A DNA stretch of 60,518 nt, filler included. It is 4 parts of 4 records of this genome, joined end to end, with 100 filler letters (N's around TTAATTAATTAA, not from the genome) between each part and the next. Parts side by side here need not be neighbours in the genome. Positions count along the whole stretch, not along the records: positions 51,073 to 60,518 come from SRR31156797_12565; 3 more parts are not named here. One strand, 5' to 3'. Below, in pieces: positions 1 through 60,518 of the stretch (position 1 is its first letter; every line of letters begins with the position of its first letter). The notes under the pieces were generated by a model. It saw only the letters and a list, made by a program, of their open reading frames with translations, did not search any database and was not told where the DNA came from. The translations under genes were made by a program, and so were the position numbers.

Positions 1-570
1 AGTTTACAATCTCTCAGGACCTGACATCTATACAAGTACTACGCAGAAATTTCGTCATAGGTGAGGCTCAGTCCATGACTTATATTGTAGATTTATAATA
101 CTGCTATTTCAGGCATATCTGAAGGTAATTGATTAAGAAGACCATTGAGGAGTTGTTCGAAACAACTTGAAGATCTCGCATCGCATCTTCAAGTCCACTT
201 TGACCTTCAACCCAAAGTGCTCAACGCAACGACGCCTGCTTCTTCTTTCAATGAGTAGTTCGCCCAAATTTAACGCAAATATGAACGCGATATTGCCCTA
301 CTTATTGACAGGCATTTCCTTAATCCCCAGTACAGACCATTATAATAAAGAAGGATAATAATCCTAACCAAGAAGACATTTTTGTGCAATTCTTCACTAC
401 ACCACACAGCTTTACTGTAGTATCGACCTGTAAAAAGTACATGCAAAAAAAAGACCCTACAAGTCTCTGGGGGTCCTTTGGAGTTTCCCTTAATAGCTGG
501 AGATGAAGCCTTCTGCTTCGAACTTTTTCCTTACCCTGTAATTTCCTGCCACCCGCAAACCTGACAAAGG

Positions 571-14096: not shown

Positions 14097-14196
14097 NNNN
14101 NNNNNNNNNNNNNNNNNNNNNNNNNNNNNNNNNNNNNNNNTTAATTAATTAANNNNNNNNNNNNNNNNNNNNNNNNNNNNNNNNNNNNNNNNNNNN
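14097..14196. other. Artificial contig linker
   Basis: N44-TTAATTAATTAA-N44 (stops in all frames). Confidence 0.98.
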
Positions 14197-36300: not shown

Positions 36301-37562
36301 CCATTTTGTTGCGGGCACCGAAAGGTCCCGCCTTGGTGGTTGCCCCCACATCGGTAATGATGAATTGGCAGCAGGAGGCAATCCGTTTTGCGCCGACCCT
36401 GAATGTGCATTTTTTTGGTAACGGAAACAGACAGGAGCTGCTCGATTGTTTGGCAGAATTTGATCTGGTTATTTGCAGTTATGGCCTTCTCCAGAGTGAA
36501 GGAAAGATGCTTGCTGGTGTCAGGTGGCAGACCGTTGTCCTGGATGAGGCCCAGGCGATTAAAAACATGCATACCAAACGCTCCAAGTCGGCTATGCAGC
36601 TCCAGGCAGGATTCAAAATCATTACCACCGGCACTCCCATTGAAAATCATCTGGGTGAGTTGTGGAACCTGTTTCGGTTTCTTAATCCAGGGCTGTTAGG
36701 GTCTTATGAGAGCTTTAAGAGAAAGTTTGCCATTCCTATTGAAAAGAAGCAGGACCGGGCAGCGGCAAGTCATCTTAAAAAGTTAATCCAACCCTTTATC
36801 CTGCGCAGGTTGAAACACTCTGTACTTCAGGAGTTGCCCGAACGTACTGAAGTAACCATGCAGGTGGAGATGAGTACGGAAGAAGCGGCAATGTATGAGG
36901 CGCAAAGGCTGCAGGCGCTGGAGTCGCTGGAAGCAGCGGATGACGAGCAGGGTGGTGGAGCTAAACATCTTCAGGTGCTTGCTGAAATTACCAGACTACG
37001 GCGTTTCTGCTGTAATCCAGAGCTGGTTGTGCCTGATATGGGTATCCCTAGTTCCAAGCTCAAGGTGTTTACCACTATTGTGACGGAGTTGTTGGAAAAT
37101 AAGCATAAAGCCTTGGTCTTCAGCCAATTTGTCGGTCATCTTACGCTTATCAGGGAACATCTAGACCGGCTGGGAATTTCCTATCAATACCTGGATGGCT
37201 CCACCAGCACAGGGCAACGAACGAAACGGGTGAAGGCCTTCCAGGCAGGGGAGGGTGATGTTTTTCTGATTAGCCTCAAAGCTGGCGGTGTGGGGCTGAA
37301 TCTGACGGCAGCGGATTATGTCATTCATATGGACCCCTGGTGGAATCCAGCTGTTGAGGATCAGGCTTCCGACCGGGCTCACCGTATCGGGCAGCAGCGT
37401 CCGGTGACTATTTACCGGTTGGTGGTGAAAGATTCCATTGAAGAAAAAATAGTTGCCTTGCATAAAGTAAAACGTGACCTTGCAGATAACCTTCTGTCCG
37501 GCAGTGACATGAGCGGGCGTATCTCTACCGCGGAACTGCTGAATCTGCTCAAGAGTAAGTGA
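33375..37562 (+). CDS. SNF2-family helicase with large N-terminal region
   Basis: LRDYQ, ADDMGLGKT, DEAQ, TGTPIEN, FILRR, GGVGLNL, QASDRAHRIGQ. Confidence 0.94.
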   Translation: MPLPTLTPIQKKFPKIYATLSVTDRNVLECLSVIFQAVSRTNLVNCLNQIGWRNEQGDKFVIKGLNGVLESLKQRKLVQLSSRGTICNPELVELVAREAVAGGNFKKIAKCVQKVIPIENTWSRAVWYKSYEQGVRELRIAIYQQQSERESSSILTLLKEQYPREYHAEHPFELIFFNPFNRKGLFSLSKRQVYGFINPLLSRGCLLLEPVDVLFGFLQEYAQEYTLDDDEYNSIVALYLISRGEVKRVESHLQSWNISAHMLSYRGWFALLQGKCDESLHWYEQGLQLLKKETGKRKVAYSNLAGFFYPVALLQSGENENFKKGMSYLDQLKKKRSFTSSSMCTDLEQTIMFAQGQRNKAEQKYHSLEMGGYSDYASLLMAYLTLCWQGGEVKQNPVKGLELLQQQAEKSGYYWYAKEATAIMLAHDLGKTANKKKYTQLEKQCPLPDLCDAIRPREQWEQVLEALATLNSGQKSSGAAATERLVWWIDFEEEYGECEIVPRLQKLSKNGKWTKGRAVALSRLSSDVNTLTFLTSQDRNVIGTIEKTRVSSWGGYGGNPSYALRESSALAALVGHPLLFWADNPSVLVELTMGTPELHVVKEKKGYEIKLLPFIDHGQSYSLTKETPTRLKYISLTRDYKRLFDIIGESVSVPFQAKEKVVAALSEVAKVLTIQSDIGGSAVDAQMVAADARPHVHMIPYNNGLQVEALSRPFSPGGGYYRPGIGGETVVADIDGEQLQTKRDLELEKQNAAIIPQNCPALSHMSPLDSEWIVEDPETCLELLCELRELGDQVVLEWPKGESLKVTANISFDNLSLKIQRDNDWFGATGSLKVDNDLILDMKKLMALSVDSESRFVPLDDGRFLALSKSLKQRIEELRAFSEDHGKGVRFSPLAGLALQEFTEEVKNCKSDSHWKKNLKRFQTVSEPEVPSTLRATLRDYQVQGFRWLGCLSALGAGACLADDMGLGKTVQALAAILLRAPKGPALVVAPTSVMMNWQQEAIRFAPTLNVHFFGNGNRQELLDCLAEFDLVICSYGLLQSEGKMLAGVRWQTVVLDEAQAIKNMHTKRSKSAMQLQAGFKIITTGTPIENHLGELWNLFRFLNPGLLGSYESFKRKFAIPIEKKQDRAAASHLKKLIQPFILRRLKHSVLQELPERTEVTMQVEMSTEEAAMYEAQRLQALESLEAADDEQGGGAKHLQVLAEITRLRRFCCNPELVVPDMGIPSSKLKVFTTIVTELLENKHKALVFSQFVGHLTLIREHLDRLGISYQYLDGSTSTGQRTKRVKAFQAGEGDVFLISLKAGGVGLNLTAADYVIHMDPWWNPAVEDQASDRAHRIGQQRPVTIYRLVVKDSIEEKIVALHKVKRDLADNLLSGSDMSGRISTAELLNLLKSK

Positions 37563-37976
37563 CGCGGGAGGGTGGTGGGGTGGGGGCAAGTTTTATAGGA
37601 GGCATTTTTACTTTATCAAATAGTTCTGACCCCTTTTTTTCAAGAGGTCCGGGGCTTGGTGAAAGGTCGACTACGCCAACAATATTCTGAAACTGCGGTG
37701 CGGCAAATATGATTCTAAATTTGACACATTTTTTGATGAATACGAGAAAAACGAACAAGGTAAACGAGTTTCACGGGAAAAGAGGCTCCGCGTAGTCAAG
37801 TGATTCCATAAACGTCGGATGCTCCTAGTTGAGTGTGATTCCCATTGTTTTCTGTCATGTTATAGAAAAGGTATTGAATTACTGTGATGCATTGAGGATA
37901 ACGTGAAATAAATGATGATTTACAACATGAATTCCTTTTGATATCCGGAGCATTACCCCTCGCTGGCAAACAACTC

Positions 37977-38699
37977 ATGAATATAAAAAAAATAGATGCA
38001 GCAAAAGACCCACTGGGTGCCATGCTGCTTGAATATATGCGTGGCAATCTAGAAGTATCCATTACAGTAGAAGCAGAAAATTTCGAGATGACAACCATGA
38101 CTGGCGCAACCATGTTCAGAGAGTATTCCGAAATGGAACAACTCGAACAGCATGCTCTTGCATTATGTAAAGGTAAAATCCTTGATGTTGGTGCTGGTAG
38201 CGGTTGTCACAGTCTGTTTTTGCAACAACAGGGGAAAGACGTTCATGCTCTTGATATTTCCCCAGGTTGCGTGCAGGTCTTAAGTGAGCGCAAAATACAG
38301 CATGTTATGCATCAGAATCTTTTTTCACTCAAAACATGTCAATACAACACAGTTCTTATGTTAATGAACGGTATAGGTATCTGCGGTACTATCAACGGTC
38401 TTCACCTTTTTTTCCAATTCATCCCGACATTACTGGCAGAAGGTGGTCAGGTTCTTGTCGATTCAACCGACCCGTTTGTGCTTGATGGTATTCCGGGGGA
38501 AGATTACCACCCTTCTGAAATTTACCCTGGTGAGACTGATTTTATAATGAAATACAAAAAAATTTCTTCCGAACACTTCAGTTGGCTGTATGTCGATTTC
38601 GATACCCTCCAATCACTCGCTGAATTTCACGGTTTTCAATGTGAACGGATCATCGCTGGCTCCGATGGTGAATATCTTGCTAAAATTCACTCCCAATAA
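37977..38699 (+). CDS. Class I SAM-dependent methyltransferase
   Basis: ILDVGAGSG, ALDIS, LMNGIG. Confidence 0.88.
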   Translation: MNIKKIDAAKDPLGAMLLEYMRGNLEVSITVEAENFEMTTMTGATMFREYSEMEQLEQHALALCKGKILDVGAGSGCHSLFLQQQGKDVHALDISPGCVQVLSERKIQHVMHQNLFSLKTCQYNTVLMLMNGIGICGTINGLHLFFQFIPTLLAEGGQVLVDSTDPFVLDGIPGEDYHPSEIYPGETDFIMKYKKISSEHFSWLYVDFDTLQSLAEFHGFQCERIIAGSDGEYLAKIHSQ

Positions 38700-38872
38700 C
38701 ATTGAATTACGACACGTAAAATCGGCCATATTACAGGTCGACTTTCTTTACATGCCGGTTCAATAACTCAAAACTGTAACTCCTTCTTCAAATAAGGCAG
38801 GACAGGTTGTGTCGGATCCTCCAACCTTTACACCGGTGGCCAAATCATTTTCAGTTAGGCCACCGACATTTT

Positions 38873-39038
38873 TCACGATGACTCATAAGCCAGATCGATA
38901 TGATCCTTGTAGCGATCCAGGACCTTCCGGCGTTTGAGTTTCATGGTATGGTGTCAACATGCCATTATCTACACTGAACGGTTCATCGACCATAGTAAAT
39001 TTTCTTGGAATTTCATATCCTCCGAATTTCCCTTTAAG
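38873..39038 (-). pseudogene. 3' remnant of a long-chain fatty acid--CoA ligase
   Basis: LKGKFGGYEIPRKFTMVDEPFSVDNGMLTP, then a 1-nt frameshift to TMKLKRRKVLDRYKDHIDLAYESS*; no 5' part. Confidence 0.75.
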
Positions 39039-39047
39039 TTGGAGAAG

Positions 39048-39225
39048 AGGGGGCGAGTCTTTGGTTGACTCATTATGTCTGTCAAGTGTCCTAAAATGTC
39101 GAATTTGGCAGAATTAACATATTTCCCACTAAGTCATGACTAATAGGAGGTATCTGGACTATTGCCAAATCGACCTTCAGAGACATTCTTACACATGAGA
39201 TGAGTCAAGCAAAGATGTGACCCCT
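39048..39225. repeat. 178-bp concentric degenerate palindrome (MITE/REPIN-like)
   Basis: Outer 26-bp arms 21/26 identical, inner ATTTGGCA/TGCCAAAT arms and central AGTCATGACT all share the centre 39136.5. Confidence 0.7.
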
Positions 39226-39257
39226 TTACTTGTGGAGACATTTAAGTGAGATTATCC

Positions 39258-39906
39258 CTAAAGACTAGTAGCGCGTATCACTTCACGTCCCAAGACTTTG
39301 AATTCGAGAGTGGCGCTTACCGTGTCGAGCTGTCTGCCCTGTGCTGAGTTCATGGCCCTAGCACATTTGAGCCTGTCTATATTGCAGAGAGAGTGCAATT
39401 TCGTCATCTGTTTCATTAAAAAAAGCCTTCAATTGGTCAACTCTTATTGCCCCTTCACCCTCTGTCGTTAACTCAAACAACTTAAATAATATGAGGGCAT
39501 CAAGAGGGTCAAATTGTCTTGCTGTATCGATAATCGATTGTCTTATTAAGTTCCGTTTCTTAGGATCCATACCGTTCGCAAGCAATCGTGCCCAGAGTTC
39601 CCTCAGTTCACTCCTTGTTTCATCTTGTCCAGCTGTCAAGATAGGTATAGCGACACTTGGACTCATGGGTTCTGAAGTCTCATAGATGCCTCTCTCTTTA
39701 AGTATTTCTTCCGTACGCTCAGCTAGCTTGATAGCATTTCGAATACGAACATGATGAAGCCAGTTGCCACCAAGAACCCCCACAATATCAGATGGAACTG
39801 TACCGAAAACTTTCGACAAAAAGGTTCCCAACTTGTCACTACTGGCAAGAGCTTTCGCGCCGAACTTAGCAAGTTCTTGTGTAGCTTTCGCTTCTTCATC
39901 TAACAT
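39258..39906 (-). pseudogene. Abi-alpha (DUF4393)-like gene with a frameshift near the 3' end
   Basis: PSVAIPIL, ELRELWARLLAN, DPLDALIL; a family-like C-terminus (CNIDRLKC...LGREVIRA*) continues in another frame after the (CT)4 run at 39386-39393. Confidence 0.7.
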
Positions 39907-41104
39907 CTCTATACCGTTCTCTATTTATTTTCTAAAATACAGCATCCGAAGTCAATATCTTTCCACTGTACCTTGACTTTTGTCAGCTTACAGAACTCTA
40001 TATATTGCTTGAGAAGTGACACAGAGCTATTGGTACCCCACGACTGTCTCAGATAGGTAGCACCAAAATAACCCACAAAAAAGCTGAACCACAACGTGGA
40101 TGCTTTTTTATGATATAAAAACGAGCAGTTAAAAATGTACCACCACCTGCCTCTAATTTCAAATTTATATTCATTGAATAGCTGAAGCCTGTTCTTTACC
40201 TATAGCGCCCAAATTACAGCCATTTTTGTGTTTACAGGGAGAGATTGTGATGTGGATGCTACTAGGTGTCCTTTGTGGTGATCGTTAATAGTAGACATAA
40301 TATCATTGTACTATCATCAGTCACCAGCCACATCAGTACCCAGCCCTCTCTCTATTCTCTGTTCTATTGTTCCCTACCTGAAATGTTTCGAATAGGGGGG
40401 ACAAGTAGACGATGTCTTTTACCGGATTGAATCTGATGGCAGAACATATCTTTTATAGAAGAAGGCCTGGATTTGGTGCGGTAGAGTTGGCGTTGCGAGG
40501 AGAAGAGGTGGTACTGAGGGAAGGGTGGTAACTGCTAGAGTGTGTGATAGGATAATAGTACTATTATTATCAGTAAACTATCCCCATGAAATGAGCACCA
40601 CGTTTTCAGAAAAAGCTTTTAGACAGCCGTTAAATAAATTTAACACGGACCGGCAGGCGGCCAGTGGCCAGTGCCTGGTTCAACGGATAAGGGGTAAGGT
40701 TAATCTGAGTACGTCGTTCTCAAACTTAACAGCAACAGTCGAAGCCTTTGTTTGAGTCAGCTACATTGACAATAATATTACTTGTAAACATAATGAAAGT
40801 TATCGAACTCACTTTCTTTCTTGTCGCTTTTTTCATCTTTTGAATGTAATTTTGTTTATCCTTGAATCTATATAAATTGGTTAGCAAGTTGAGCATGGAT
40901 TTGCATCATACAATGCTATCCTGTTAATTTGATATCCAGCTACATTGTCATGATATAAAGCAGAATGTAGGGGTAACTTGATAATTTTACGTTTCCAACT
41001 GAAGCAAAACACAACAAGCTCTGTTTTTCTAAGCTATAAAGAAGCCAGAGAACACCTTGTTCTTTGTGACAGAGTCGCTGAGAATCGCAATTCTAAAAGG
41101 ATTA

Positions 41105-43396
41105 ATGATGACAGAGATCCAACGTCTGGACGAAGGAAGCCAATCGAGGAGTGATCGGGAGCTGATCGATCTCTTGGCTACTGCGGTGTCTAAGCGCTCT
41201 GAACTCCGCTTGCTTAGAATCGGGGGACCGAGAGGGTTCAGAAATGCGATCATTTCTGCTGCAGAGGGTAACGACCCCGTCGCCGATCCCTTCGTGTCTG
41301 CCCTTCTGTCCCCAGATATCCCATTCATAAAGGTACTATTTGCTGACCCTAATGGTGAGCCTTTCTTGAAGCGGCTAGACCAAGAAGAGGCAAGTTGTTG
41401 GAAGGTATGGCGAGTGAGAAAACAACTCTTCCAGCTCGTACAATCTATGTTGTCCATTGGCGCGCGTCGGCATTCCCCTAATTCTTTAGTGGTCGGCTTT
41501 CACCGAGATGAGCTAATCTGGAATTTAGGCATCATTGGGCAAGACGACGCTCTTGTTAGGCCCTATGGACATGGCACTGGACACGATGAGTCTGTTTTAG
41601 CTAACCGAATTAGAAGTGACAAAGCCGAGGATATCTTAGCTCGTGCATTCCTCAAGTACTTTGAGACACTCTCGACACGTCTTGATACTGAGTGGATTCG
41701 TCCTGGTTCTCTGAATCTTGAGGCGACACCTCGTTGGCCTAGTCTTTATAAGGGCAACGCGATTCTTGCGGGTGATACAGACATTGACGGAACTGCCGAG
41801 CCGGAACTTGCGCCATATGAAGTCTGTAAGATATGCCTTGAACCGCGAGCCAACGAAGCCGAGGAGCGATGGCTTGGACTTTCGGAGTCACTTCGCGCTA
41901 GACAGACCAGCTTCAGGCCGGGAACTGTGATCAAACGGCTTAATGACTTTCGAGGCCACGGTATTATAACCGATCGAATCCCTGGCCCCTCTTTATTCGA
42001 ACTGGCTGCTTGCCTAAATAGTACATCCGTCCAAGAAAGTTACCTTTCTAGGGTTGGTGCGGTGCTAGACATTCTACTAGAAGACTCCCTGAAGGCGTTG
42101 ATCGAATTCCGTGACTTGGCTGAGAGTGTTCTGCCTCGTGCAAAGCGGGCAACATATCCATATGGGGCTAAGCTCACTTCAGCAATAAAGGAGATCCGAA
42201 AACACTGCGCATCAATTCCAGAAGAAGTTTGGTGCGAAGCGATTGAAGACTCTACAGAACTTGGGGAGGAGCTTGAGCAACATGCCGTAGTTCCCTTCCG
42301 AGATGCTCACCTGAAAAATCGCCTATGGAGGGAGCCGCGCTCCACCGAGGCCATTACCAACAGTCTATTAGACTTGTCGCTCGACGAAGTTCCATATCAT
42401 ATAAACAGTCGTGTCAAGGACATTGATTTTGAGACCGCATTCTATAACGTTACACTTTGGGACGACCCGTTTCATATTCTTCTATTTGAGTATTCGACCA
42501 TTGGGCGACGTCCTGTCGATCCTCATGCTATAGACATTTGGGATCGATTTAGTGATAGTTGTGGTTCACTATCAGATCTGAGAGCCTGGCGTACTGGACT
42601 TGCACGGGCCACGCGGGAATTCGCCAGAAGGCTGTGGTATTACAATGTAATGCCAAATAGTTACGCTATGCGCTACTCAAGTGAAACGCCAGACTTCTTT
42701 CTTCGACTCGCTCTGGAATGTTCTAGCCGCTGTAGTGGCTATTTGAAGCTGCGAAGATTATTGGAAGCATTGGAGGCGCATTGTAATTTTGGAGGTTTGG
42801 GATCGACACGACATGACAGAATTACTCCGGCTCCCTATTCAACAGAATTGAGCAACGGCCTGGAGCCACATCGGTCCAAGCCCTTCTTCTCTCATCCTCT
42901 CGCCACTACCCGTGCAAGCCTTCATCATCTTGACAGTAATAGGAAAGCGCTACGCGCCTTCGTCAGCTACTCACATCATGATGAGCAACATCGAGAGAAA
43001 CTCGAGAGAACTCTTGTTTTATTAAAGAGAAGCGGCCTCCTAGAGACATGGAGTGACCGTCGTTTGGTTCCTGGAGAAGAATGGGATAAGGAAATTGCCT
43101 TAGAACTGAACACTGCCGATGTAATAATATTTCTCGTTAGTTTCGAGTTCTTGGCATCGGACTATTGTTCTGAAGTTGAAGTCCGGTCAGCTTTGAAACG
43201 GGATAAGGACGGAACCGCGACTGTTCTGCCGATTGTCGTTCGGCCTATTCCATTAAAACATACCGAATTTTCTCACATTCTAGCCCTACCAAGAGACGGA
43301 AAGGCAATTACAACTTGGAAGCACGAAGACGAAGCGTGGGTTGATGTGGAGCAGGGGATACGAGATGTTTGCTTGCGACTCAGAGACCGCAAATAG
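41105..43396 (+). CDS. Three-domain protein: DUF5919/PLD-like, APH/kinase-like, TIR
   Basis: N-terminal VLFADP..LVRPY..KYFETL pattern; VCK, RDAHLKN, DIDFE; C-terminal AFVSYSHHD, WSD, LASDYCSEVE; SD AAAGGA before ATG 41105/41108. Confidence 0.8.
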   Translation: MMTEIQRLDEGSQSRSDRELIDLLATAVSKRSELRLLRIGGPRGFRNAIISAAEGNDPVADPFVSALLSPDIPFIKVLFADPNGEPFLKRLDQEEASCWKVWRVRKQLFQLVQSMLSIGARRHSPNSLVVGFHRDELIWNLGIIGQDDALVRPYGHGTGHDESVLANRIRSDKAEDILARAFLKYFETLSTRLDTEWIRPGSLNLEATPRWPSLYKGNAILAGDTDIDGTAEPELAPYEVCKICLEPRANEAEERWLGLSESLRARQTSFRPGTVIKRLNDFRGHGIITDRIPGPSLFELAACLNSTSVQESYLSRVGAVLDILLEDSLKALIEFRDLAESVLPRAKRATYPYGAKLTSAIKEIRKHCASIPEEVWCEAIEDSTELGEELEQHAVVPFRDAHLKNRLWREPRSTEAITNSLLDLSLDEVPYHINSRVKDIDFETAFYNVTLWDDPFHILLFEYSTIGRRPVDPHAIDIWDRFSDSCGSLSDLRAWRTGLARATREFARRLWYYNVMPNSYAMRYSSETPDFFLRLALECSSRCSGYLKLRRLLEALEAHCNFGGLGSTRHDRITPAPYSTELSNGLEPHRSKPFFSHPLATTRASLHHLDSNRKALRAFVSYSHHDEQHREKLERTLVLLKRSGLLETWSDRRLVPGEEWDKEIALELNTADVIIFLVSFEFLASDYCSEVEVRSALKRDKDGTATVLPIVVRPIPLKHTEFSHILALPRDGKAITTWKHEDEAWVDVEQGIRDVCLRLRDRK

Positions 43397-43915: not shown

Positions 43916-44015
43916 NNNNNNNNNNNNNNNNNNNNNNNNNNNNNNNNNNNNNNNNNNNNTTAATTAATTAANNNNNNNNNNNNNNNNNNNNNNNNNNNNN
44001 NNNNNNNNNNNNNNN
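43916..44015. other. Artificial contig linker
   Basis: N44-TTAATTAATTAA-N44. Confidence 0.98.
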
Positions 44016-50972: not shown

Positions 50973-51072
50973 NNNNNNNNNNNNNNNNNNNNNNNNNNNN
51001 NNNNNNNNNNNNNNNNTTAATTAATTAANNNNNNNNNNNNNNNNNNNNNNNNNNNNNNNNNNNNNNNNNNNN
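50973..51072. other. Artificial contig linker
   Basis: N44-TTAATTAATTAA-N44. Confidence 0.98.
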
Positions 51073-51176
51073 CAAGATGGATTACATTTGGGCGGCTCTC
51101 TGCCTTGTTGGGGCTGCCTACTTCATTTTTCGAGGGGTTGCGTAGGGGGGCTGTAAACTGTAATTAAAGCCACCTC

Positions 51177-51364
51177 CTGGTTTTTACTGTCCTTGGCGAT
51201 TACCTGCCAGTAGTAAGTTGCGCCGAATTCGAGCATGTCCGGATGGCAGACGGTTTCGGTGATGCCTTTGCAGGCCGGGACAAATTCGGCCATTTTTCCG
51301 GTTTTGTGGTAATCTCACTCCGATTGCCCGCCGTGTCAATCCCCATGAATTTGAGGGTGCCGCC
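51177..51364 (-). pseudogene. Decayed 3' continuation of the FN3/dockerin gene
   Basis: After the TAA: GGTLKFMGIDTAGNRSEI, then in another frame YHKTGKMAEFVPACKGITETVCHPDMLEFGATYYWQVIAKDS, a paralogous copy of about 51800-51925. Confidence 0.75.
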
Positions 51365-52858
51365 TTAGGGGGATGCTTCCACCACCGGAGGCATTATGTC
51401 CTGGCCGGAGCCATACCCGAAGACCCGGGAGAACAACTCAAGGTCTGCCTGGTCTATGACACCGTCTCCATTGAAATCCGCACTGTCCTTGTACGCCGGG
51501 TTTCCGGCCGATGTCCCCAATGAAGATACCAGCAGGGCAAGGTCCTGACCGTCAATGGTCTGGTCGCCGTTAATATCTCCGTACCCGGGCAGATGGGAAG
51601 GCCTGCTCATGCGGTCCATGGGATCCGCACCTGCATGGAATTCCTCTCCGTCCCGGTAACCGTCACGATCGCTGTCACAGTCAAAGGGATCGGCGCCCAG
51701 GGAGATCTCATTCTCGTTGGACAATTGATCATTATCTTCATCCCCGTCGGACGCAAAGGTTGTAAATCGCCATTGGGGCCCTGGGGTTTCCCGTCCTTCA
51801 CTGTCCCTGGCTGTTACCTGCCAGAAGTAAGTCGTGCCGAATTCGAGCATGTCCGGATGGCAAACGGTCGCGGCGATGCCTTCACAGGCCGGAATGAATT
51901 CGGTCATTTTATCGGTCCTGTAGTAGACGTCATAGGTCACTGTATCGCCGTCATCCGGGTCACCCCCCTGCCAGGCAAGGGCGGTTTGAACGGATATGTT
52001 GGCGGCGTCCATACCGGGATCGGGTACGGACGGCTCAAAGGGCGGCGTGTTGGTGTCGAGGAGGTCATCAATATTGATGTCATGGGTCACCAGGTCCGAC
52101 ACATTAAAGTCTCCTGAAAACGGAATGGACAGGGACTGTTGCACTGGGGCGACTCCGGGAATCCTGAGGGTCAGGTCAATGACCTCCGGCCCGGAAAGGA
52201 GCCGGTTGTTGCCATCCATATCAAAGAAATTGTTCAGATTCAGGCAGGCCTGGTTCTTTCCGGCCCCGTCGCCCACAATCCCCGACACCTGTGACAGCAT
52301 CCCGGGGGGGCCGGCGGAGATGATCCATCCCCCGGCCTCGAGGTTTCTTGCATCGTTGGAAAGGCTGACCAGCAGCTGTTTGCCGTCAAGGATAAATGCA
52401 TTCTCAGCGGCCGTAACGACTTTGACGGGATTTGATTCGGGCCAGGTCGTCATACCGGAGCCGGAACCGGCGCGGACTTTTACGTAATAGGCCGTATCCG
52501 GCGCGCACCCGTAAACCGACATTTTAACCATGCCGAGGCTGATTGCCTGATCCCGGATGCTGTCCTTTGACAGGCCTGACTGGTATTCACCGGCAATGGC
52601 GGGGTCGCCGCTGTGAAGCGGAAATGCAACGGTCTCCAGATTTCCGGTAATCTCCATGGTGCCGGCGGCATCGGAATATACGGATATCTCCGGTGTTGCG
52701 GGTGCCGTGGTCTGCCATATGACGGAAAAGCCCGAAGGTGTCACATCAACGATGTTCACATATTCAATGGCCGGGGCAGAGAAACCGGCATTTGCCATGA
52801 ACAATAGAAATATTGCGCATGGAATAACAGTGGTGAAAAATCCGTGCATTCGTTTCAT
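51365..52858 (-). CDS. Secreted protein with FN3-like, Ca-binding (TSP3-like) and dockerin-like domains
   Basis: Signal peptide; WQGGDPD..TYDVY..YFWQV; DSDRDGYRDGEE; GDINGDQTIDGQD and DFNGDGVIDQAD; start 52858 or 52888. Confidence 0.82.
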   Translation of the reverse strand: MKRMHGFFTTVIPCAIFLLFMANAGFSAPAIEYVNIVDVTPSGFSVIWQTTAPATPEISVYSDAAGTMEITGNLETVAFPLHSGDPAIAGEYQSGLSKDSIRDQAISLGMVKMSVYGCAPDTAYYVKVRAGSGSGMTTWPESNPVKVVTAAENAFILDGKQLLVSLSNDARNLEAGGWIISAGPPGMLSQVSGIVGDGAGKNQACLNLNNFFDMDGNNRLLSGPEVIDLTLRIPGVAPVQQSLSIPFSGDFNVSDLVTHDINIDDLLDTNTPPFEPSVPDPGMDAANISVQTALAWQGGDPDDGDTVTYDVYYRTDKMTEFIPACEGIAATVCHPDMLEFGTTYFWQVTARDSEGRETPGPQWRFTTFASDGDEDNDQLSNENEISLGADPFDCDSDRDGYRDGEEFHAGADPMDRMSRPSHLPGYGDINGDQTIDGQDLALLVSSLGTSAGNPAYKDSADFNGDGVIDQADLELFSRVFGYGSGQDIMPPVVEASP

Positions 52859-52911
52859 TTCTTTTTCTCTTCCTGGTTGAGCGTCCATATCATCTTCACC
52901 TCAGGCTTTTC

Positions 52912-53622
52912 TTAATTTGACGGTATGGAACCGTTATTCCGCCGGGATTCCGGCTCCCATACTGCCAGCAGGTAATCTTCAGACTTCGTTTTTCCCTTGA
53001 ACCAGTCAAGAACCCGTTTGAGATGGCGGGGATAGACCTTTCCATGTTTGGGGCGGCTGGTCATGATGCTTGTGGGATCAATGATCTTTGTCTCCGGATC
53101 CAGCGCCCCTTCCCCATATTCGTCGTAGAGCCCCAGCATATGGCCGAATTCATGGGCAATGGTTACCGGGGTATCCAGAATATGCCAGTTGAGTTCATCG
53201 CTGCAGCATCCGCCGCCGGGCCGGACCACGACATCATGGTGGAACAAGGGCCCTCTGAAACTCACATCCACCACAACAGGGTATGTTTCTCCGGTGGGGG
53301 ACTGGATAGCGTATTTCTTACTCCAGGTCTGCTCGATCCCTTGTTCCCATTCCTTTTTTACCCGGTCCAGCTCGATTTTTCTGACGCCCTTTCCCGGAAC
53401 CAGATTCACCACGGACCGGACAATGACCTGTTTGTTCCTGAATTCGATCTCGTACCCGTAATGCCAGTTGAATCCTTTCTTCAAGGATATATGACCGGCA
53501 ACGGTTTCCCTGCCCATGTGAGGAATATCGCCCGGGAAACCGGCCCGGACAAAAAGGACCGACACTAAAATCGCTGTTCCGAGTAATCCCATCCCGGATT
53601 TAAAGGTCTGTTTATCCATCAT
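52912..53622 (-). CDS. Secreted zinc metalloprotease (metzincin-like)
   Basis: N-terminal hydrophobic leader; HEFGHMLGLYDEY; SIM Met-turn. Confidence 0.82.
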   Translation of the reverse strand: MMDKQTFKSGMGLLGTAILVSVLFVRAGFPGDIPHMGRETVAGHISLKKGFNWHYGYEIEFRNKQVIVRSVVNLVPGKGVRKIELDRVKKEWEQGIEQTWSKKYAIQSPTGETYPVVVDVSFRGPLFHHDVVVRPGGGCCSDELNWHILDTPVTIAHEFGHMLGLYDEYGEGALDPETKIIDPTSIMTSRPKHGKVYPRHLKRVLDWFKGKTKSEDYLLAVWEPESRRNNGSIPSN

Positions 53623-54415
53623 GGTCCTGTTTATTTTCTTTCACCGTTGCTTTGGTTTCCTTTACCATCCGGCCGGGAAGTCCTTTCCGCTTTAAACTCA
53701 ACTCCCCGCCGGTCAATATTGCCACGCGTCCCTTGCCGGACGCCATGAGGCGCCTGGCGGCTTTTTCACTTTCCCCGTTTCCGTCGTCAACAAGGATATA
53801 GAGGGGGGCAGGGGCCGTATCCGGTTGGTTATTCTTTACGGACATGGAAGCGGCCCTGTTGCCGGCCGTGGTCCGGGCTGATGCCTTTTCTTTCAACCGG
53901 ATTGCGTCAAGACCCGGAAAAGGGGCGGACAGGTCTGTCCGGGATTTGGATTGGGAACGCAGGTCCAGAAGGACAATATCGGCATCCTCCGCGGCCATTT
54001 CCTTCAATTCCCGGTATGTCACCGTGGGAACAGGGCGCTTGGCAATCCCTTTTTTACGGGTGGTGGTCAGATTCAGGGATTCCCATGCGGCATATCCGCC
54101 CTGGAGGGGTTCCGCCCGGATGCCTTCCCGGCTGTCGAGCATGGCTGCGGCCCGGGCGGTGAGACCGGTGCGGATACCGTCTCCGTATACAATGACGGAT
54201 CCGATGCCGGGAAGGCGTTTCATGGCGAGCACGGACGCGGGAATGTTGATGGCCCCCTGGATATGGCCGTCCCTGTACACGGGCTTGCTCCTGATATCAA
54301 TCAGGGTAATGTCCTTGTTTTGATCCAGCATCCCTTTCAACTCAAGGGGCGTCATGGCCCAGACGGTTTCCGCCAGGAGACAGATGCCGGTGATAACAAT
54401 TAAAATATATTTCAT
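53612..54415 (-). CDS. Secreted tandem rhodanese-like protein lacking catalytic Cys
   Basis: IDIR, GHIQGAINIP, LQGGYAAW; second domain LLDLR, LTGG; TAATG overlap with the upstream gene. Confidence 0.82.
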   Translation of the reverse strand: MKYILIVITGICLLAETVWAMTPLELKGMLDQNKDITLIDIRSKPVYRDGHIQGAINIPASVLAMKRLPGIGSVIVYGDGIRTGLTARAAAMLDSREGIRAEPLQGGYAAWESLNLTTTRKKGIAKRPVPTVTYRELKEMAAEDADIVLLDLRSQSKSRTDLSAPFPGLDAIRLKEKASARTTAGNRAASMSVKNNQPDTAPAPLYILVDDGNGESEKAARRLMASGKGRVAILTGGELSLKRKGLPGRMVKETKATVKENKQDHDG

Positions 54416-57400
54416 TATAAAACCTCCCCCGGCCGCCACGGCCCGGTCGAACTGTTAAGATCCAGCATCAGCACCGAAACCCTGGGAATGAAAAAATCCT
54501 CTCCCCTGATGTCGCCCTGGTGAACCGATGCCGCCTGCCATCGGCCGGTACCGGAATCAAGCATGCGGACCGCCTTGACCTTGGCCGGACCCAGTTCCCG
54601 GATCAATTGATATGCGGAATAACGGTCGGGAAAACAGGGGTAACTGAAGACGGATTTTCCCGGGGCCAGGGCAAGGGCTTCGCAGGAACTGCTGCCAAGG
54701 TCCAGGATACGGGAACTGCTGAACTTCACCCAAAGGAAATCCCCCGCCTCAAGTGAAAAATTGACCCCTTCCGGTGCATTGGCCGACCATGTTACGGTTT
54801 GTTCCACCGGTTGGGGCAGTAAAGCGGTATACCGTGTGATCCGGGTAACCCCGGCCTCTTTGTTCCAGAGCGCCAGAAGGGAGAAGGCGTCCCCGGCATT
54901 CTCCACCATGCCGCCGGTCACGGCAATGACGTTCCGGTTATTGAAAACAGGCTGGATATCCGGGACCGGGCCGGCCATTACTTTTTCCCTGCCGCTCCGG
55001 TGATCGACCCAGACCAGCACGTTGGATGCCATGCAGGGGTTCTCTTTTACCGATGCTTCGTTTGTCAGCTGAACACTGGCCAGGTTGGACAGATTGAGAA
55101 GCCGCAGGTTGATGTTTTGTTCTCCTGCCGCATCCTCCCGGTATACCACCCACCGGCCGTTGATATGGGGCCGGGTTTCGTCTTCGGGGCCGCTTGTCAG
55201 CCGGATTTCCCGTTGCCGGTTCAGGTTGTAGCCGTAAAGGTCGAAGCTGGCGTTTCGGTTGTCCGCCCAGACGATCCATTGATCAAAGACCACCGGGTAA
55301 TACTGTCCTCCGGAATTATCGGTGATACGGGAAACCTTGCCGGTTTTCAGGTTTTTCATGTAAATCTCGCCGTACCCCGGGTCCCGGAAATCCTGCCAGA
55401 CAAGGCGTTGTTTGTGCAGGGCGGGATCCAGCTGATCCTGGGAGGTTACATCCACGGCTTCCGTGACGCCGGAAATGAGGTTCCGGCTCATCAGCTGCCA
55501 GGGATCGCCCGGGGCGGCACTGGACCTGGACTGATAGACCACCCAGGGCCAGTAAACCACGGGGTTTTTTTCATCCGTTCCCGGGGTGGCGGTCACGTCA
55601 AATGCAGGCTCCCCGGTTTCCAGGTCCTTGCACCGGATATCCCATGTGCCGTCCGCCCGGCGGTCTTCCCAGACCACATACCGTCCGTCCGTATGGGGGT
55701 GTTCCTGGTTGTATTGATTGGTTGTCACGGGAACCGCCGTCCCGGCGCCGTTCCCAAGGTTACGGGTGAAAATGTCCCAGTTTCCGTTTCGCTGATCCTG
55801 CCAGACCACCCTGTTTCCACGGGCATGGACCGCTTTCTGTCCGGCGTTTCCATTGTCGGACAGCTCGGCGCCGCCGGCGATCATGTCACCGACATACACG
55901 AGTTTGACCGCGCCGGCGGACCGCCCCAGGCCGTCCCGGACCGTAATTCTGACCGAATACCAGCCCGGCGGCGCCACGGCCCCGCCGTCGGTCCTGCCGT
56001 CCCAGACAAATTCCGCATCCTGGTCGTCCACCTGTCCCAGATCCTGATACCGCACACGGGTTTCCATGGGAAAGGTCAATCCGTACAGGCGGTCGACGGT
56101 CCACCTTAAACTGGTGCCGGGGCCCTCATCTGGACAGGGTTGGGCTTGATCGTCCCGGGCCAGGACTTCAACCATATGGTCTCCGTCTTCAAGCCGTTCG
56201 AGCACCATGGAATCACCGGCAGCCGTTTCGGGACGGTAAAAGGAACCGTCCGTACGGTAACAATAATTTGCACTGCCCATAACGGAAAGGGTCACCCCGG
56301 GGGAGCGGGTGGGTGTTTCCGGAAGGCCCGTGACGGCCAGGGCAGGGGCGTCATGGGCCACGGTCCATGTCCCTGTGACGGCCTGGCTGTCCGGGTGATA
56401 GTCCCCGTACCGGCTCCGGCCGGATACGGAAAGGATCACTTCGCCGTCCAGCCCGGACAATGGGATGGGCTGGGCAACCGGAATCTCCTGGCTCCATGGA
56501 TCGTCTCCCAGGCGGTAACGGTAAAAGTCCACGTTCTCTCCGCCCACGGTGATGGCGGCGGTATCATGGGCGGTTGGAGACGACGGGACACCGCTGAGGG
56601 TCGGAAAGGCAAACACACCGCGAAATACCTCTGCCACGGCATCCAGCCCGGCACCGGTCATCACCCCCTTGAACCCCACGGTCAACCGGGTGGGCCGGAC
56701 GGATATGGAATCTCCGGCAATGAACAGTTCTTCCGTGTCGCCGGTCAGGTTGACCACGGCCGGTTCCGCCACGCTGACCCTGACCACGGCCGTCCGGTGA
56801 ATCTCTTCATTTTCCTGGGCATCCACGGAATAGAACTCCAGGGTGTGTTCCCCAGCCTCGTCAATGGTAAAGGGGTATGCCGGCAGAAATTCCCCCTCCC
56901 CATCCAGCCGGTACCAGGTCCCCACGGGACTGTCATCTTCCGCAATGAAAAAGATCTGTGTCTTTGGAAGGATATGGTATGTCCCGTCTTTTTCCCGTGA
57001 CGGACCGGTAAACGACAGGGTGGTAACCGGCGGATCTTCGTCAAGGCCCTGGGATTCATAGGTCACGGTATATTGGTACTCACCCAGGGCGACAAAATCA
57101 AAGATGTTCAAATAGCTGAGCCTGGCATTGTCCGTTTTCCCGTACCGGACATGGGTCCAGTAATTGTTGGGATTGAGCACCTTGCCGTCCGACCGCACCA
57201 CTTCGGCAATGGGGTATTTGGCCTGTCCCGGATCATCCAGGCGTATGAACACCCAGTTTTCAATATCGGCATTGGCCTTTACGGTGGCGGTCAGTCCGGT
57301 AAAATCCAGAATCTCCGCCTGGTCCAGCCGGTTCACCGGGAGGGTCGTGCCGTCACTTTCATACAGGGTGTCCGGAATCAGCTGTTCCCCTTCCTGGGTT

Positions 57401-58398
57401 TCAGCCAGGAAATCCAGCAGGCTGTCCCTGCCGGGCTGGTCGTTCATGACTTCATGGACCATGAAATAGGCATCGATGGACCGGATCAGGGAGGTTTCCT
57501 CCCCCCCGAGCTCGGGGGCATGGGTATAGGAGGCCTTGAATTCCGTAAATTCCCCGGAAAGGGTCGTGATCATATCCCAGGCCCCTTTCCGGCAGCCGCC
57601 GGGGGGGATGTCCCCGAGATCCACGGTCAGTGTGGTGCTGTCCGTGGGTTCATCGTTCACCCGGGCGCCGATGAGCTGGGGAACCACCAGCAGGCCCTGC
57701 TGATTTTCCACAATCCTGGGCTGTTCGGACACAATCTTCACCTTTCTGGCCATGCCGTGTCCCACGTTTTTGACCAGAACCCCCAAGGTAAACGGAATGG
57801 GTGTTTCAACAATATCCAGGGTAAAGGGGTTGTCTCCGTCCACATCCCTGGGCTGGAAATAGGTGATTTCAAGTTCCGGGTCCGGCTTGACCCGGATGGT
57901 GTCCGGCAGTACCCGGAATACCTCCGGGGAAATCTCCTGGCCATAGATGGAGCCGGCCAGGAGGGCGCCGATTTCATAGGGCAGGCCTTCCGGTGTGGTG
58001 CCACCGGCCGACAGCTTGGGAATGATGAACCACTCCACCACCGCCGTTTCCCCGGGGGAAATGATGCCGGTGCCGTCAATGGACGTCACCCCCTTTATCT
58101 TGGGGGGCTGGACAAAGAACAGGCTGGAGGCATCCTCCATTTCACCTCCCTGGCCTTCTTTCTCAAAGGTCAGGCCGGCTGAAAAATCGGTGATGCTTGC
58201 GTCCCCCTCATTGTTGGTAACCGTAAGGGTTGCAAGGAATCCGACGCGTTCCAATGTCAGTTCCTGGAGGATCTCGATCTTGACATAGGAGCACAGCCCG
58301 TCATACTGCTGGGCCCCGTGGGCGGCGGTCACCGCCATCACCCAGATCATAAGGGGGAGTATGGTGAGTAGTCGTTTCCCTGATCGTGTCCGCATCAT
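54415..58398 (-). CDS. Large secreted protein with Ig-like, FlgD-Ig-like and beta-propeller repeats
   Basis: Signal peptide ending AHG-A; DPPVTTL..EFYSVD; WDGRTDGG..PPGWY; repeated VVW(Q/E)DxR units; ATGA overlap. Confidence 0.85.
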   Translation of the reverse strand: MMRTRSGKRLLTILPLMIWVMAVTAAHGAQQYDGLCSYVKIEILQELTLERVGFLATLTVTNNEGDASITDFSAGLTFEKEGQGGEMEDASSLFFVQPPKIKGVTSIDGTGIISPGETAVVEWFIIPKLSAGGTTPEGLPYEIGALLAGSIYGQEISPEVFRVLPDTIRVKPDPELEITYFQPRDVDGDNPFTLDIVETPIPFTLGVLVKNVGHGMARKVKIVSEQPRIVENQQGLLVVPQLIGARVNDEPTDSTTLTVDLGDIPPGGCRKGAWDMITTLSGEFTEFKASYTHAPELGGEETSLIRSIDAYFMVHEVMNDQPGRDSLLDFLAETQEGEQLIPDTLYESDGTTLPVNRLDQAEILDFTGLTATVKANADIENWVFIRLDDPGQAKYPIAEVVRSDGKVLNPNNYWTHVRYGKTDNARLSYLNIFDFVALGEYQYTVTYESQGLDEDPPVTTLSFTGPSREKDGTYHILPKTQIFFIAEDDSPVGTWYRLDGEGEFLPAYPFTIDEAGEHTLEFYSVDAQENEEIHRTAVVRVSVAEPAVVNLTGDTEELFIAGDSISVRPTRLTVGFKGVMTGAGLDAVAEVFRGVFAFPTLSGVPSSPTAHDTAAITVGGENVDFYRYRLGDDPWSQEIPVAQPIPLSGLDGEVILSVSGRSRYGDYHPDSQAVTGTWTVAHDAPALAVTGLPETPTRSPGVTLSVMGSANYCYRTDGSFYRPETAAGDSMVLERLEDGDHMVEVLARDDQAQPCPDEGPGTSLRWTVDRLYGLTFPMETRVRYQDLGQVDDQDAEFVWDGRTDGGAVAPPGWYSVRITVRDGLGRSAGAVKLVYVGDMIAGGAELSDNGNAGQKAVHARGNRVVWQDQRNGNWDIFTRNLGNGAGTAVPVTTNQYNQEHPHTDGRYVVWEDRRADGTWDIRCKDLETGEPAFDVTATPGTDEKNPVVYWPWVVYQSRSSAAPGDPWQLMSRNLISGVTEAVDVTSQDQLDPALHKQRLVWQDFRDPGYGEIYMKNLKTGKVSRITDNSGGQYYPVVFDQWIVWADNRNASFDLYGYNLNRQREIRLTSGPEDETRPHINGRWVVYREDAAGEQNINLRLLNLSNLASVQLTNEASVKENPCMASNVLVWVDHRSGREKVMAGPVPDIQPVFNNRNVIAVTGGMVENAGDAFSLLALWNKEAGVTRITRYTALLPQPVEQTVTWSANAPEGVNFSLEAGDFLWVKFSSSRILDLGSSSCEALALAPGKSVFSYPCFPDRYSAYQLIRELGPAKVKAVRMLDSGTGRWQAASVHQGDIRGEDFFIPRVSVLMLDLNSSTGPWRPGEVL

Positions 58399-60518
58399 TC
58401 ATCCCCCCTTTCCGGGTCTGCTGTTTCTTCATCGTAGAGAAATGCCCTGAGTCTTTCTTCCATTCCGGTTTCCTCTGCCTTGCCGCATTTCTGGCGGACA
58501 AGCACGCCGTTTACATAAAAGGATTCATACCCCTCCACATCGAGGCTGTACACGGTGGCCGGGGTTGGGGTCCGCCGTATTGTCGTGATTTCGGCCCGTC
58601 CGTTGTCCGGCATGGAGAGAATTTCTCCGGATGCCAGTTCCCCGGCCGCCACCCACCTTTTCTTCCTCAAGGACCAGAAAAGGTGTTCATCCGTGGTTTC
58701 AAGCCGTCCCCGGGCAACGGTTCCATCCCCGGTAAAGTGGGTATACTGAATTTCAAGAACATGATCGGATTCCCGGGTATAAACCTCCGAAATCCTTGCC
58801 GTGCCGCCGTCCCAGGCCATGACACGGTCTCCCGGCCTGACGGTGCCGATGGGCCGCCGGCTTCCGTCGGCCATGCGTACCGGGCTTCCCGCCGTAAAGC
58901 ACCCCTTTCCGCCGGTGCCGACGGAATATTTCGCATGATCGCCGCCGCCCCCACCGCCTCCGCCGATGTCGAAGAATGACCCGACAATGCATCCGGCAAA
59001 TTGCGCCAATGTGCCGACAATGGCTTCGACACCCGCAACGCCCGACGCAATGGCCCAGCCCGCTATCAGGCTGCAGCCGACCGCCGCGCCCGTCGGGGAC
59101 ACGCCGCAGTTGGCCACTCCCCTGGCGCCGATGGCCGCAAGCCCTCGAATAAAATCCGAGGGATCAAAGACCGCGGAGGCGCAGTTGGATACGGCATTGC
59201 CGGGAAGCAAGGCGTCCTGTCCCCTGTAGGTGAACCGAATCGGTATCTCCACGGTCTCCATGGCGTTCAGCCGGGGCAGGTAGGTGACCAGGGGCTCCAT
59301 GCGGGAGGCCCCGTTATCAAAGACCGAAAGCGTGACATCATCCACGGCCTTGAGTCCATAGTTGGACAGGTTTGCAATGATCGTTGTCGTAAAACCCGGT
59401 TCCACAGTCCCAAAATCGATATAGGGGGTGTCAAACATGATCACCGGCATGGGCACATGGGTTTCAAATGTCTGCTCGATCTTGATTTCATAGCGGTCCG
59501 TAAAGGCCACGGGCTCGACATTGAAGGTCACGGTCACCAGGTTCTTGTTCAGTACCTCCTCCACCAGGACCGTCTGGTCCCCCACGATATCAACCACCCC
59601 GCTGACCGAATTATGGCCGGGTGCCGTGATCTGGTAGGTCCAGGAACCGATGCCGAGTCCGTAAAGGGTCACCTGGCCGTTGAGATCCGTTTCAGGGGAG
59701 ATGACCTGTTCATGGATGGTATTGTTGAAGATCCGGACCGTGGCATCTTTCACCGGCTGTTCGATGCTGTTGGTGACCGTAAACATGGCCGACCCTTCCA
59801 GGTGGGAGGTGATGAGGGGATATACGTTTACATTGAATTCCTGGACCGAATTGGATCCGGTAATGACGAATTTGTCATTGTAATCCCCGAATTCCGTATC
59901 CCCGGGCGGTGCGATGATGACATCAAAGGTCCTGGATTCACCCACCTTGATGTCCCCAAGGTCAACGGCTCCCTGGGAGTTCCGGGGCAGGTTTGTGGTT
60001 ATCCAGGGCAGGTCCCCGGGCAATGCCATGGTGGCATCGGTGAGATCCATGAGGCCCTGGTTCTTGACCGTCACCGGCACTGTTTTAATGACGCCCCTGT
60101 CAATGCTGGCCTCCACATAACCGGTGCCGGGTTCCGTCATGGTGAGCACGGGAACCGCGGGCACCAGGCTCACGGAACCGGAGAAGACACTGGCGGCGCC
60201 CTGGGCGGATATCAATCTATAAACCACCTGGGCATCGTCCGGCGCATCCCCATCCGCCCGGAGTTTGAGGGTCACGGTCCGGGTCTCCCCGGGCGGGAGG
60301 GTAAATCCGTCCGGAAAAATCGCCTCCCCATGTAAGGTATCCACGGGAATCTCTTCATCGGCGGCATCCAGGGTACTGGCGCTGAATGCCATGGTAAAAT
60401 GAGAGAGGGGCATATCCCCTGGATTGACCAGGCTGATCACGAAATCCAGGACATCCGCCTTGGACGAGCGAATGGTGGCCTCGGAGGGTGATGCATACAT
60501 GCGGTAGAAGCTGAACCG
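58395..60518 (-). CDS. Large Ig-like surface protein with C-terminal Hint domain, 5' end outside the window
   Basis: Beta-rich repeats, carboxypeptidase-regulatory-like segment, Cys/Ala/Gly-rich helix region, Gly8, then CFTAGSPVRMADG..TTDEHLF..VYSLDVEG..FYVNGVLVRQ. Confidence 0.88.
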   Translation of the reverse strand, partial: RFSFYRMYASPSEATIRSSKADVLDFVISLVNPGDMPLSHFTMAFSASTLDAADEEIPVDTLHGEAIFPDGFTLPPGETRTVTLKLRADGDAPDDAQVVYRLISAQGAASVFSGSVSLVPAVPVLTMTEPGTGYVEASIDRGVIKTVPVTVKNQGLMDLTDATMALPGDLPWITTNLPRNSQGAVDLGDIKVGESRTFDVIIAPPGDTEFGDYNDKFVITGSNSVQEFNVNVYPLITSHLEGSAMFTVTNSIEQPVKDATVRIFNNTIHEQVISPETDLNGQVTLYGLGIGSWTYQITAPGHNSVSGVVDIVGDQTVLVEEVLNKNLVTVTFNVEPVAFTDRYEIKIEQTFETHVPMPVIMFDTPYIDFGTVEPGFTTTIIANLSNYGLKAVDDVTLSVFDNGASRMEPLVTYLPRLNAMETVEIPIRFTYRGQDALLPGNAVSNCASAVFDPSDFIRGLAAIGARGVANCGVSPTGAAVGCSLIAGWAIASGVAGVEAIVGTLAQFAGCIVGSFFDIGGGGGGGGDHAKYSVGTGGKGCFTAGSPVRMADGSRRPIGTVRPGDRVMAWDGGTARISEVYTRESDHVLEIQYTHFTGDGTVARGRLETTDEHLFWSLRKKRWVAAGELASGEILSMPDNGRAEITTIRRTPTPATVYSLDVEGYESFYVNGVLVRQKCGKAEETGMEERLRAFLYDEETADPERGDE

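Follow-up and report, generated by a model that had tools for sequence, protein, structure and literature searches.

What does a Hint domain do when it closes a giant exported protein, has lost its splicing asparagine, carries no cargo and is followed directly by the gene of a second exported protein? The question is raised by a five-gene operon in the last piece (positions 51073-60518, from SRR31156797_12565) of a 60,518-nucleotide stretch of DNA, hereafter called the window. To our knowledge, few roles have been assigned to bacterial Hint domains beyond inteins and toxins. Here, the domain is an invariant member of an operon found across phyla and stands beside a defined candidate acceptor, which makes the acceptor of a bacterial Hedgehog-like thioester reducible to a two-fragment experiment. 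Our best guess is that the first two genes, termed part 1 and part 2, encode the two halves of a single giant scaffold, extracellular or at the surface, each half being exported on its own. The Hint thioester may be captured by the N-terminus of part 2, and we give a probability of about 0.35 to such an extracellular ligation in trans of two docked chains by an intact Hint domain, involving neither a split intein nor a sortase. New findings are the comparison of three gene layouts, the prediction of a hairpin zipper and an N-terminal peptide of part 2 that is specific to Hint-coupled copies.

Conservation of the operon

The window consists of four unrelated contigs (GC content 0.48, 0.46, 0.62 and 0.58) chained by runs of N with a 12-base spacer at 14097-14196, 43916-44015 and 50973-51072. 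Neighbours across these linkers provide no genomic context, and the operon is confined to the last contig. An earlier note on this DNA had described five co-oriented genes with overlapping junctions, and all of the open reading frames (ORFs) and junctions were found in the sequence, on the minus strand: genes 1 and 2 overlap at ATGA, genes 2 and 3 meet at TAATG, genes 3 and 4 overlap by 11 nucleotides, and gene 4 is separated from gene 5 by 23 nucleotides up to the first ATG of the latter or by 53 nucleotides up to the second, which is the better start. Gene 1 runs without an upstream stop to the end of the window, so that only its C-terminal 707 residues are present. The open frames of its relatives in five complete genomes span 3,689-7,754 amino acids; beta-helix, FN3 and Ig domains occur in these relatives, with signal-like starts in those where the start is readable (L085, L087 and L090).

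Relatives of the operon were collected by scanning one genome per species, 248 of 260 candidate stretches being confirmed; because the best 80 were kept, these loci are the nearest relatives and no random sample. A Hint-ending gene stands directly before gene 2 in all 78 loci with enough upstream DNA (two were too short), no Hint-less allele being found among these 78, and a rhodanese gene comes next after gene 2 in 69/69 informative loci. Gene 5 was found in 60 of 63 informative loci, the other three having a look-alike that is diverged as judged by eye, and the metzincin gene in 11 of 63. The conserved neighbourhood envisaged by the earlier note therefore stands for the Hint and rhodanese genes, the protease being optional. 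The loci carry 12 phylum labels (Verrucomicrobiota 46, Thermodesulfobacteriota 8, Myxococcota 6, Pseudomonadota 5, Kiritimatiellota 4, and others), some of which, on metagenome-assembled genomes, appear unreliable. Cultured carriers include Desulfatibacillum alkenivorans, Haloferula sargassicola and Marinicellulosiphila megalodicopiae. Since the gene order recurs across many phyla, it is more than chance. The part-2 domain was present in 9/301, 16/301 and 9/401 genomes of even samples, and its nearest relative in the part-2 tree is an uncultured Desulfospira (83% over the N-terminal region of part 2). No description of the operon was found by full-text searches of the main text of non-subscription papers, and no Hint domain figures in the text of 10.1101/2023.11.21.568195. 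We conclude that the exported assembly is real and conserved, and it appears to be undescribed.

Features of the Hint domain

The end of gene 1 has the structure given by the earlier note: a Gly8 linker, the sequence GGKG/C (the slash marking the candidate cleavage site) and a 31-residue tail past Gln137. PT-HINT (PF07591) is matched at 35.1 (gene 1) and 39.6 bits, above the curated cut-off of 27.7, and 41 of 46 family members match it; PF13403 (Hint_2) remains below its cut-off (22.6 and 26.4 against 28.4 bits) and aligns over the first 46 positions only. Structure comparison confirmed the HINT fold (Z up to 20.8), whole within gene 1, and places Gln137 at the position of the intein Asn.

Residues were counted in 76 sequences, namely 75 loci and the window (L026, L042 and L058 failed the start pattern and were left out). 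Cys1, Thr/Ser-B7 and His-B10 occur in 76/76, yet the domain is only 37% conserved overall. As the first script was anchored on Cys1, this residue was rechecked in an alignment anchored on the other Cys, in which it was again invariant (73/73). The terminal Asn is found in none of the 76 domains and is replaced by Asp (49), Gln (18), Glu (5) or His (4); the block F Asp is likewise absent (0/76), and the penultimate His is present in 30/76. The tail beyond the domain, 8-61 residues long across relatives, is unconserved apart from a Cys at +2, which all 76 sequences share; the +1 residue is variable and not restricted to Cys, Ser or Thr (L27, R12, Q10, S6 and others). On the other side of the domain, residue -1 is Gly in 43/76.

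A search of 1.84 billion representatives gave, among the 150 matches listed, 31 at 155-177 bits per domain, the next best reaching 107.5 bits and ending in His-Asn. All 31 end in [DEQH]-x-C; the docking region of part 1 is present in 27, the remaining four being short fragments. This separate score tier and these endings, together with the conserved Cys1 and block B and the loss of the terminal Asn, mark the domain as a distinct subtype near the A-type bacterial intein-like (BIL)/PT-HINT domains, predicted to keep the first step of the chemistry and to have lost the usual third. C-terminal cleavage through cyclisation of the terminal Asp, Gln or Glu may nevertheless occur, as these residues are able to cyclise in place of Asn in some inteins (PMC4031507). 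Many proteins with 2-9 tandem Hint domains that end in His-Asn and are joined by short Lys-Gly-rich linkers were also encountered (P0164-P0310).

Predicted docking of parts 1 and 2

Part 2 (residues 1-422) and part 1 (residues 236-686) were co-folded in three runs with three controls, against a mark that is reached by 51 of 78 solved pairs and 2 of 108 mismatched pairs. The score was 0.88, against 0.00 for the best control, with contacts agreeing at 58% at least between runs and a partner pLDDT (predicted local distance difference test) of at least 66. The interface is a strand pairing in which a part-1 hairpin (residues 89-120, ending in FETHV) and a part-2 hairpin (residues 8-36) interleave, and these are the two segments, FETxVPxPV and CxxVKIxIxQxLTLER, that the earlier note had singled out. 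Neither half has a solved sequence relative at E<=0.1. Because one-chain relatives carry both halves in a single gene, the model could have picked up the contact from their sequences, and the result supports binding without demonstrating it. For residues 1-422 of part 2, the model is confident (pLDDT 92) and shows three beta domains; fold searches with part 2 returned generic Ig-like matches only (best Z 8.1), the Atlas returned unnamed clusters, and the phage collection returned no match.

No inter-chain mutual information beyond the clade structure was detected over 71 paired rows, and the pairing of Gln137 with Ala1 and of Asp137 with Gln1 was discounted since it follows the two main clades. 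The part-1 insert has two conserved cysteines (59181-59183 and 58989-58991, present in 72/73 and 73/73). No disulfide scheme can be deduced, as the number of cysteines across the insert and part 2 is even in 37 cases and odd in 34.

Three layouts of the two halves

Three arrangements of the two halves can be distinguished. In layout A (fused), both segments lie in one chain without a Hint domain, as in P0146, P0147, P0155, P0156, L083 from Nostoc and L097, which bears out the statement of the earlier note that they occur in one polypeptide elsewhere. In layout B (split without Hint), an Rhs protein or domain comes after part 1, and part 2 stands alone with its own signal peptide, usually with four residues before its Cys; nearby lie a transglutaminase, a rhodanese that is only distantly related and, in many cases, genes for type II secretion. 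Layout C, split at the Hint domain, is the operon studied here. Since the fused homologues are Hint-less and a further split layout also lacks Hint, the split neither results from the Hint domain nor depends on it. The part-1 hairpin can be recognised whether the halves are fused, Rhs-coupled or Hint-coupled, and because this junction is kept in all of them, assembly is likely independent of Hint. In L196, an Rhs domain lies between the two halves within one chain, and we therefore regard the stretch between the halves as a cargo slot.

Fifty-four loci from the even samples were sorted by eye: 8 were type C (3 being centre genomes and 4 already known), 27 had a stand-alone part 2 without Hint in the 1.5 kb upstream, and 19 lay within longer frames. 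A quick unrooted tree of 50 part-2 domains (25 of 81 from layout C, 19 of 36 from layout B and 6 from layout A) recovered each layout as one clade with 99-100% support in the Shimodaira-Hasegawa-like approximate likelihood ratio test; with an unrooted tree and the careful search unfinished, no order of events is claimed.

Locus L065 (2-13894) holds gene 1, Hint and gene 2 in one frame of 4,630 amino acids. It was rejected as an ancestral Hint-containing fusion, a signal-like stretch remaining before part 2, and probably reflects a lost stop or a frameshift. Two relatives of part 1 (P0142 and P0145) end in a Gly-rich tail, without Hint, Rhs or part 2, and represent natural controls. The Hint-less sister system (L081, 1-30663; L082, L092-L096, L099-L141 and L196-L197), in which the docking halves flank or precede Rhs, includes rhodanese-fold and transglutaminase-family proteins, often together with a type II secretion cluster, and is present in several paralogous copies per genome. 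It is possibly an undescribed Rhs delivery scaffold: no literature was found on this combination of docking halves, Rhs, rhodanese and transglutaminase, and the text of PMC3482391, whose supplements could list type B proteins, does not mention rhodanese.

A Hint-specific N-terminus of part 2

A signal-like N-terminus was seen in gene 2, in agreement with the signal peptide and mature start given for it earlier. The (-3,-1) rule is satisfied in 117/119 relatives, the site falling one residue later in 4/119, and a Cys stands exactly seven residues past the predicted site in 119/120 database relatives. The motif xx[QE][FYQN]xGxC occurs in 80/80 Hint-coupled copies but in 0/36 of the Rhs type and 0/6 fused ones. 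Residues 1-8 reach 72% in pairwise comparison, matching the best-kept domain, whereas the start of gene 3 is variable. Modelled alone, this N-terminal peptide has no secondary structure (pLDDT 68), and it is placed where the chain continues in fused relatives. Cys8 was considered as the nucleophile for the Hint domain, but this idea is weakened since Cys8 is invariant in the Hint-less layouts as well and is not specific to Hint. Trimming of part 2 by the metzincin to expose Cys8 was rejected as a general scheme, given its presence in 11/63 loci.

Proposed assembly and alternatives

After export, the two halves would zip together through their interleaved beta-hairpins, as the one-chain relatives do internally, the stretch between the hairpins looping out as a cargo slot; the co-fold makes this step very likely. 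The Hint domain would then form a thioester at Gly/Cys1, possibly relayed to or locked by the invariant Cys at +2, and the conserved residues together with established Hint chemistry make this step highly probable too. Finally, cleavage by signal peptidase would give the seven-residue N-terminus of part 2 a free alpha-amine, and attack by this amine would resolve the thioester, releasing Hint and covalently re-closing the loop. The C-extein amine would in effect be supplied by signal peptidase instead of by Asn cyclisation. Docking being predicted and the thioester deduced, we infer this last step from the N-terminal peptide, which is Hint-specific, conserved, unstructured alone and located at the site of chain continuation. 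There are precedents: a free amine can aminolyse the thioester of a BIL domain (PMC4031507), and BIL2 conjugates in trans (PMC8616854). The products of genes 3 and 5 would be obligate non-catalytic partners, chaperone-like or structural, and the metzincin an accessory.

Several observations weigh against ligation. The hairpin junction is present in Hint-less split operons, so that a covalent link is unnecessary for assembly, and the Hint domain and residues 1-7 of part 2 lie outside the confident co-fold contacts, which expresses uncertainty rather than absence. Residue 1 of part 2 is Gln in 57/80 and mostly Gln in the Hint-less layout too. An N-terminal Gln can cyclise to pyroglutamate. A type II glutaminyl cyclase is encoded in two of the Gln-start genomes (L030 and L055), and a survey of type II enzymes found full-length ones in 5/78 genomes. 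The association between motif and Hint is confined to one clade and counts as one evolutionary event. Residue -1 varies as well, with Pro in 4/76 and Val, Glu or Gln in 14/76. The Cys at +2 is two residues off register from Hedgehog C143 and one past the intein C+1, and His-Asn-x-Cys also occurs in ordinary Hint relatives (P0310, P0213 and P0237).

Some of these points fit a tentative alternative, somewhat unlikely in our view, in which the same zipper forms and Hint is a removable cap: its thioester would be hydrolysed or thiolysed, so that the insert and the Gly-rich C-terminus become free at a defined moment or under a defined redox state, with a Cys1-Cys+2 disulfide as the lock and the part-2 peptide binding the insert or another partner non-covalently. 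Assembly without Hint and the variability of residue -1 and residue 1 are in line with this, as are the cleavage without splicing by B-type BILs with a similar Asn-less end (PMC4031507, PMC7765530) and the regulation of inteins and Hedgehog by active-site Cys disulfides (PMC4031507, PMC12054796); however, the domain would be released without cargo and without an immunity gene, and the Hint-specific seven-residue peptide is left unexplained. It is unlikely that the thioester acylates another acceptor in the manner of Hedgehog or a harpoon, be it an envelope lipid or glycan (for anchoring), the gene 5 product or an amine on a foreign surface. The Hedgehog-like pattern of Gly/Cys1, TxxH, no Asn and a second invariant Cys would suit such a role; an anchor is wanted, since no membrane-anchor family was detected in genes 1-5; and Hint fills the slot that holds Rhs toxins in the sister operons. 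No region resembling a sterol-recognition one is present, though, the tail is short and unconserved, and hosts with 12 phylum labels have very different envelopes.

Slow splicing in cis, in which cyclisation of the terminal Asp, Gln or Glu would leave part 1 ligated to the short x-Cys tail of its own chain, could use the Cys at +2 to carry the branch, and 72/76 domains end in one of these three residues, which substitute for Asn in some inteins (PMC4031507). We consider it quite improbable, given the terminal His of 4/76 domains, the penultimate His in only 30/76, the missing block F Asp, a tail without conserved content and the want of a Hint-less allele among the 78 loci. Least probable is a Hint domain that stays unprocessed in vivo as a structural or binding domain: Pro stands at -1 in 4/76, but the invariance of Cys1 and His-B10 in a domain of low overall conservation speaks against it. 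A transglutaminase was also considered as the linking enzyme and rejected, for it belongs to Hint-less operons and was seen neither in L001-L080 nor upstream of gene 1 in the five complete genomes.

If trans-ligation is true, it represents a new way of building very large proteins after export and possibly a cofactor-free ligation tool, and the family as a whole would amount to a modular scaffold with a looped-out slot for a fused domain, for an Rhs toxin or for a thioester warhead. If there is no ligation, the hairpin zipper still connects three families of giant proteins that lack annotation, among them what appears to be an undescribed scaffold for Rhs delivery.

Relation to known Hint systems

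By analogy, the domain would work most like Hedgehog or BIL2, with N-terminal activation and an outside nucleophile. On the features compared, it falls outside the class 1 inteins, the A-type BIL/PT-HINT domains, Hedgehog and the split inteins. The A-type BIL/PT-HINT domains (PF07591; 2LWY, 8W20) are the best match in profile and fold (2LWY: Z 20.8, root-mean-square deviation (rmsd) 1.2, 129 aligned) and share exported host proteins, Cys1 and TxxH; unlike them, the domain has no terminal His-Asn, no toxin domain after it and no adjacent immunity gene, gene 2 following directly. The Hedgehog autoprocessing domain (1AT0, Z 18.5) likewise is a C-terminal Hint on an exported precursor, with Gly/Cys1, TxxH, no Asn and a second invariant Cys near the end (PMC12054796). 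It differs in that the second Cys here lies two residues further out than C143 (model residues 305..443 align with 1AT0 258..402, the Cys matching 402 and not 400), that a sterol-recognition region is lacking here, and that the domain belongs to a bacterial operon with a docking partner. For the general base Asp46 of Hedgehog, no invariant Asp was seen near positions 42-46 (n=76), a comparison made without residue-level alignment to 1AT0. BIL2 of Tetrahymena (BUBL1 locus; 6TMM, 6Y75) is close in fold (Z 20.7, rmsd 1.8, 135 aligned) and, by way of an amine, conjugates the neighbour on its N-terminal side with other proteins (PMC8616854), but has a terminal Asn, a C-extein in cis and an intracellular ubiquitin-like cargo.

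Like the B-type BILs (PF13403), which have a conserved C/S/T nucleophile without a preceding His-Asn (PMC9185962), the domain ends without that pair. Its Hint_2 score is below the cut-off (26.4 against 28.4), so that B-type membership has one feature in its favour and the profile against it. As in naturally split inteins, the products of two genes would be joined; in contrast to them, Hint is whole in gene 1, and the exteins rather than intein halves would dock. The C-type BILs of predatory bacteria are reportedly secreted, N-cleaving domains, and we know of no hairpin-docking partner for B-type or C-type BILs. Class 1 inteins differ by their terminal Asn (here 0/76), by a +1 residue that is Cys, Ser or Thr and by the existence of intein-less alleles (here 0/78).

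Companion genes and additional observations

Domain and motif evidence agrees with the identification of a Cys-less rhodanese, a metzincin and an FN3/dockerin protein in the operon (Table 1). Unlike a rhodanese sulfurtransferase, gene 3 has no catalytic Cys in its active-site loop, where Gly is found instead; no column of the alignment of 68 sequences reaches 20% Cys, although a few relatives retain it. Gene 4, with the zinc motif HEFGHMLGLYDEY, is a predicted metzincin-type protease, HExxHxxGxx(H/D) and the Met-turn being invariant in 13/13 sequences, including Met186.

Table 1. Coordinates of the operon and its features in the window.
Feature	Position	Strand	Remarks
Gene 1 (part 1), 5'-truncated; last 707 amino acids of a giant exported Ig/FN3/beta-helix protein, Hint at end	58395..60518	-	ORF 58395->60518
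Part-1 docking beta-hairpin, ending in FETHV segment	59454..59549	-	Co-fold interface residues 89-120
Ig-like domain after part-1 hairpin	59226..59453	-	All-beta, pLDDT ~90
Variable helical insert (putative cargo slot), moderately hydrophobic	58971..59225	-	22% mean pairwise identity, low pLDDT
Gly-rich flexible linker, ending at candidate scissile Gly(-1)	58902..58970	-	
Hint domain	58491..58901	-	Cys1 58899-58901; TDEH block B 58683-58694; Gln replacing terminal Asn 58491-58493
Cargo-less tail of 31 amino acids	58398..58490	-	Invariant Cys at +2 (58485-58487)
Gene 2 (part 2), 1327 amino acids: signal peptide, three-domain all-beta docking region, OmpL47-type/FlgD-Ig domains, beta-propeller, C-terminal module	54415..58398	-	ORF 54415-58398
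Part 2 Sec signal peptide	58315..58398	-	Predicted by inspection
Fixed seven-residue mature N-terminus and Cys8, candidate acyl acceptor	58291..58314	-	
Part-2 docking beta-hairpin	58207..58293	-	Co-fold interface residues 8-36
Gene 3, exported double rhodanese-fold protein without catalytic Cys, obligate companion	53612..54415	-	ORF 53612-54439 (ATG start 54415)
Gene 4, optional predicted metzincin-type protease	52912..53622	-	ORF 52912-53622; motif 53116-53154
Gene 5, exported protein with conserved N-terminal region and variable C-terminus (here FN3 and dockerin)	51365..52858	-	ORF 51365-52888

The C-terminal module of gene 2 (54418-54951, minus strand) is shared with some gene 5 products, which also end in it (L001, L008 and L010); it has no Pfam match and may be a sorting or docking domain. 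The part of gene 5 that codes for FN3 (51797-51925) has a diverged copy of 129 bp immediately downstream of the operon, at 51183-51311 on the minus strand. Another contig of the window carries a defence-like cluster (37938-43396) with an Abi_alpha protein (39358-39906) and a 779-amino acid protein with a C-terminal TIR_2 domain (41057-43396), near which a SNF2 helicase is encoded at 33375-37562.

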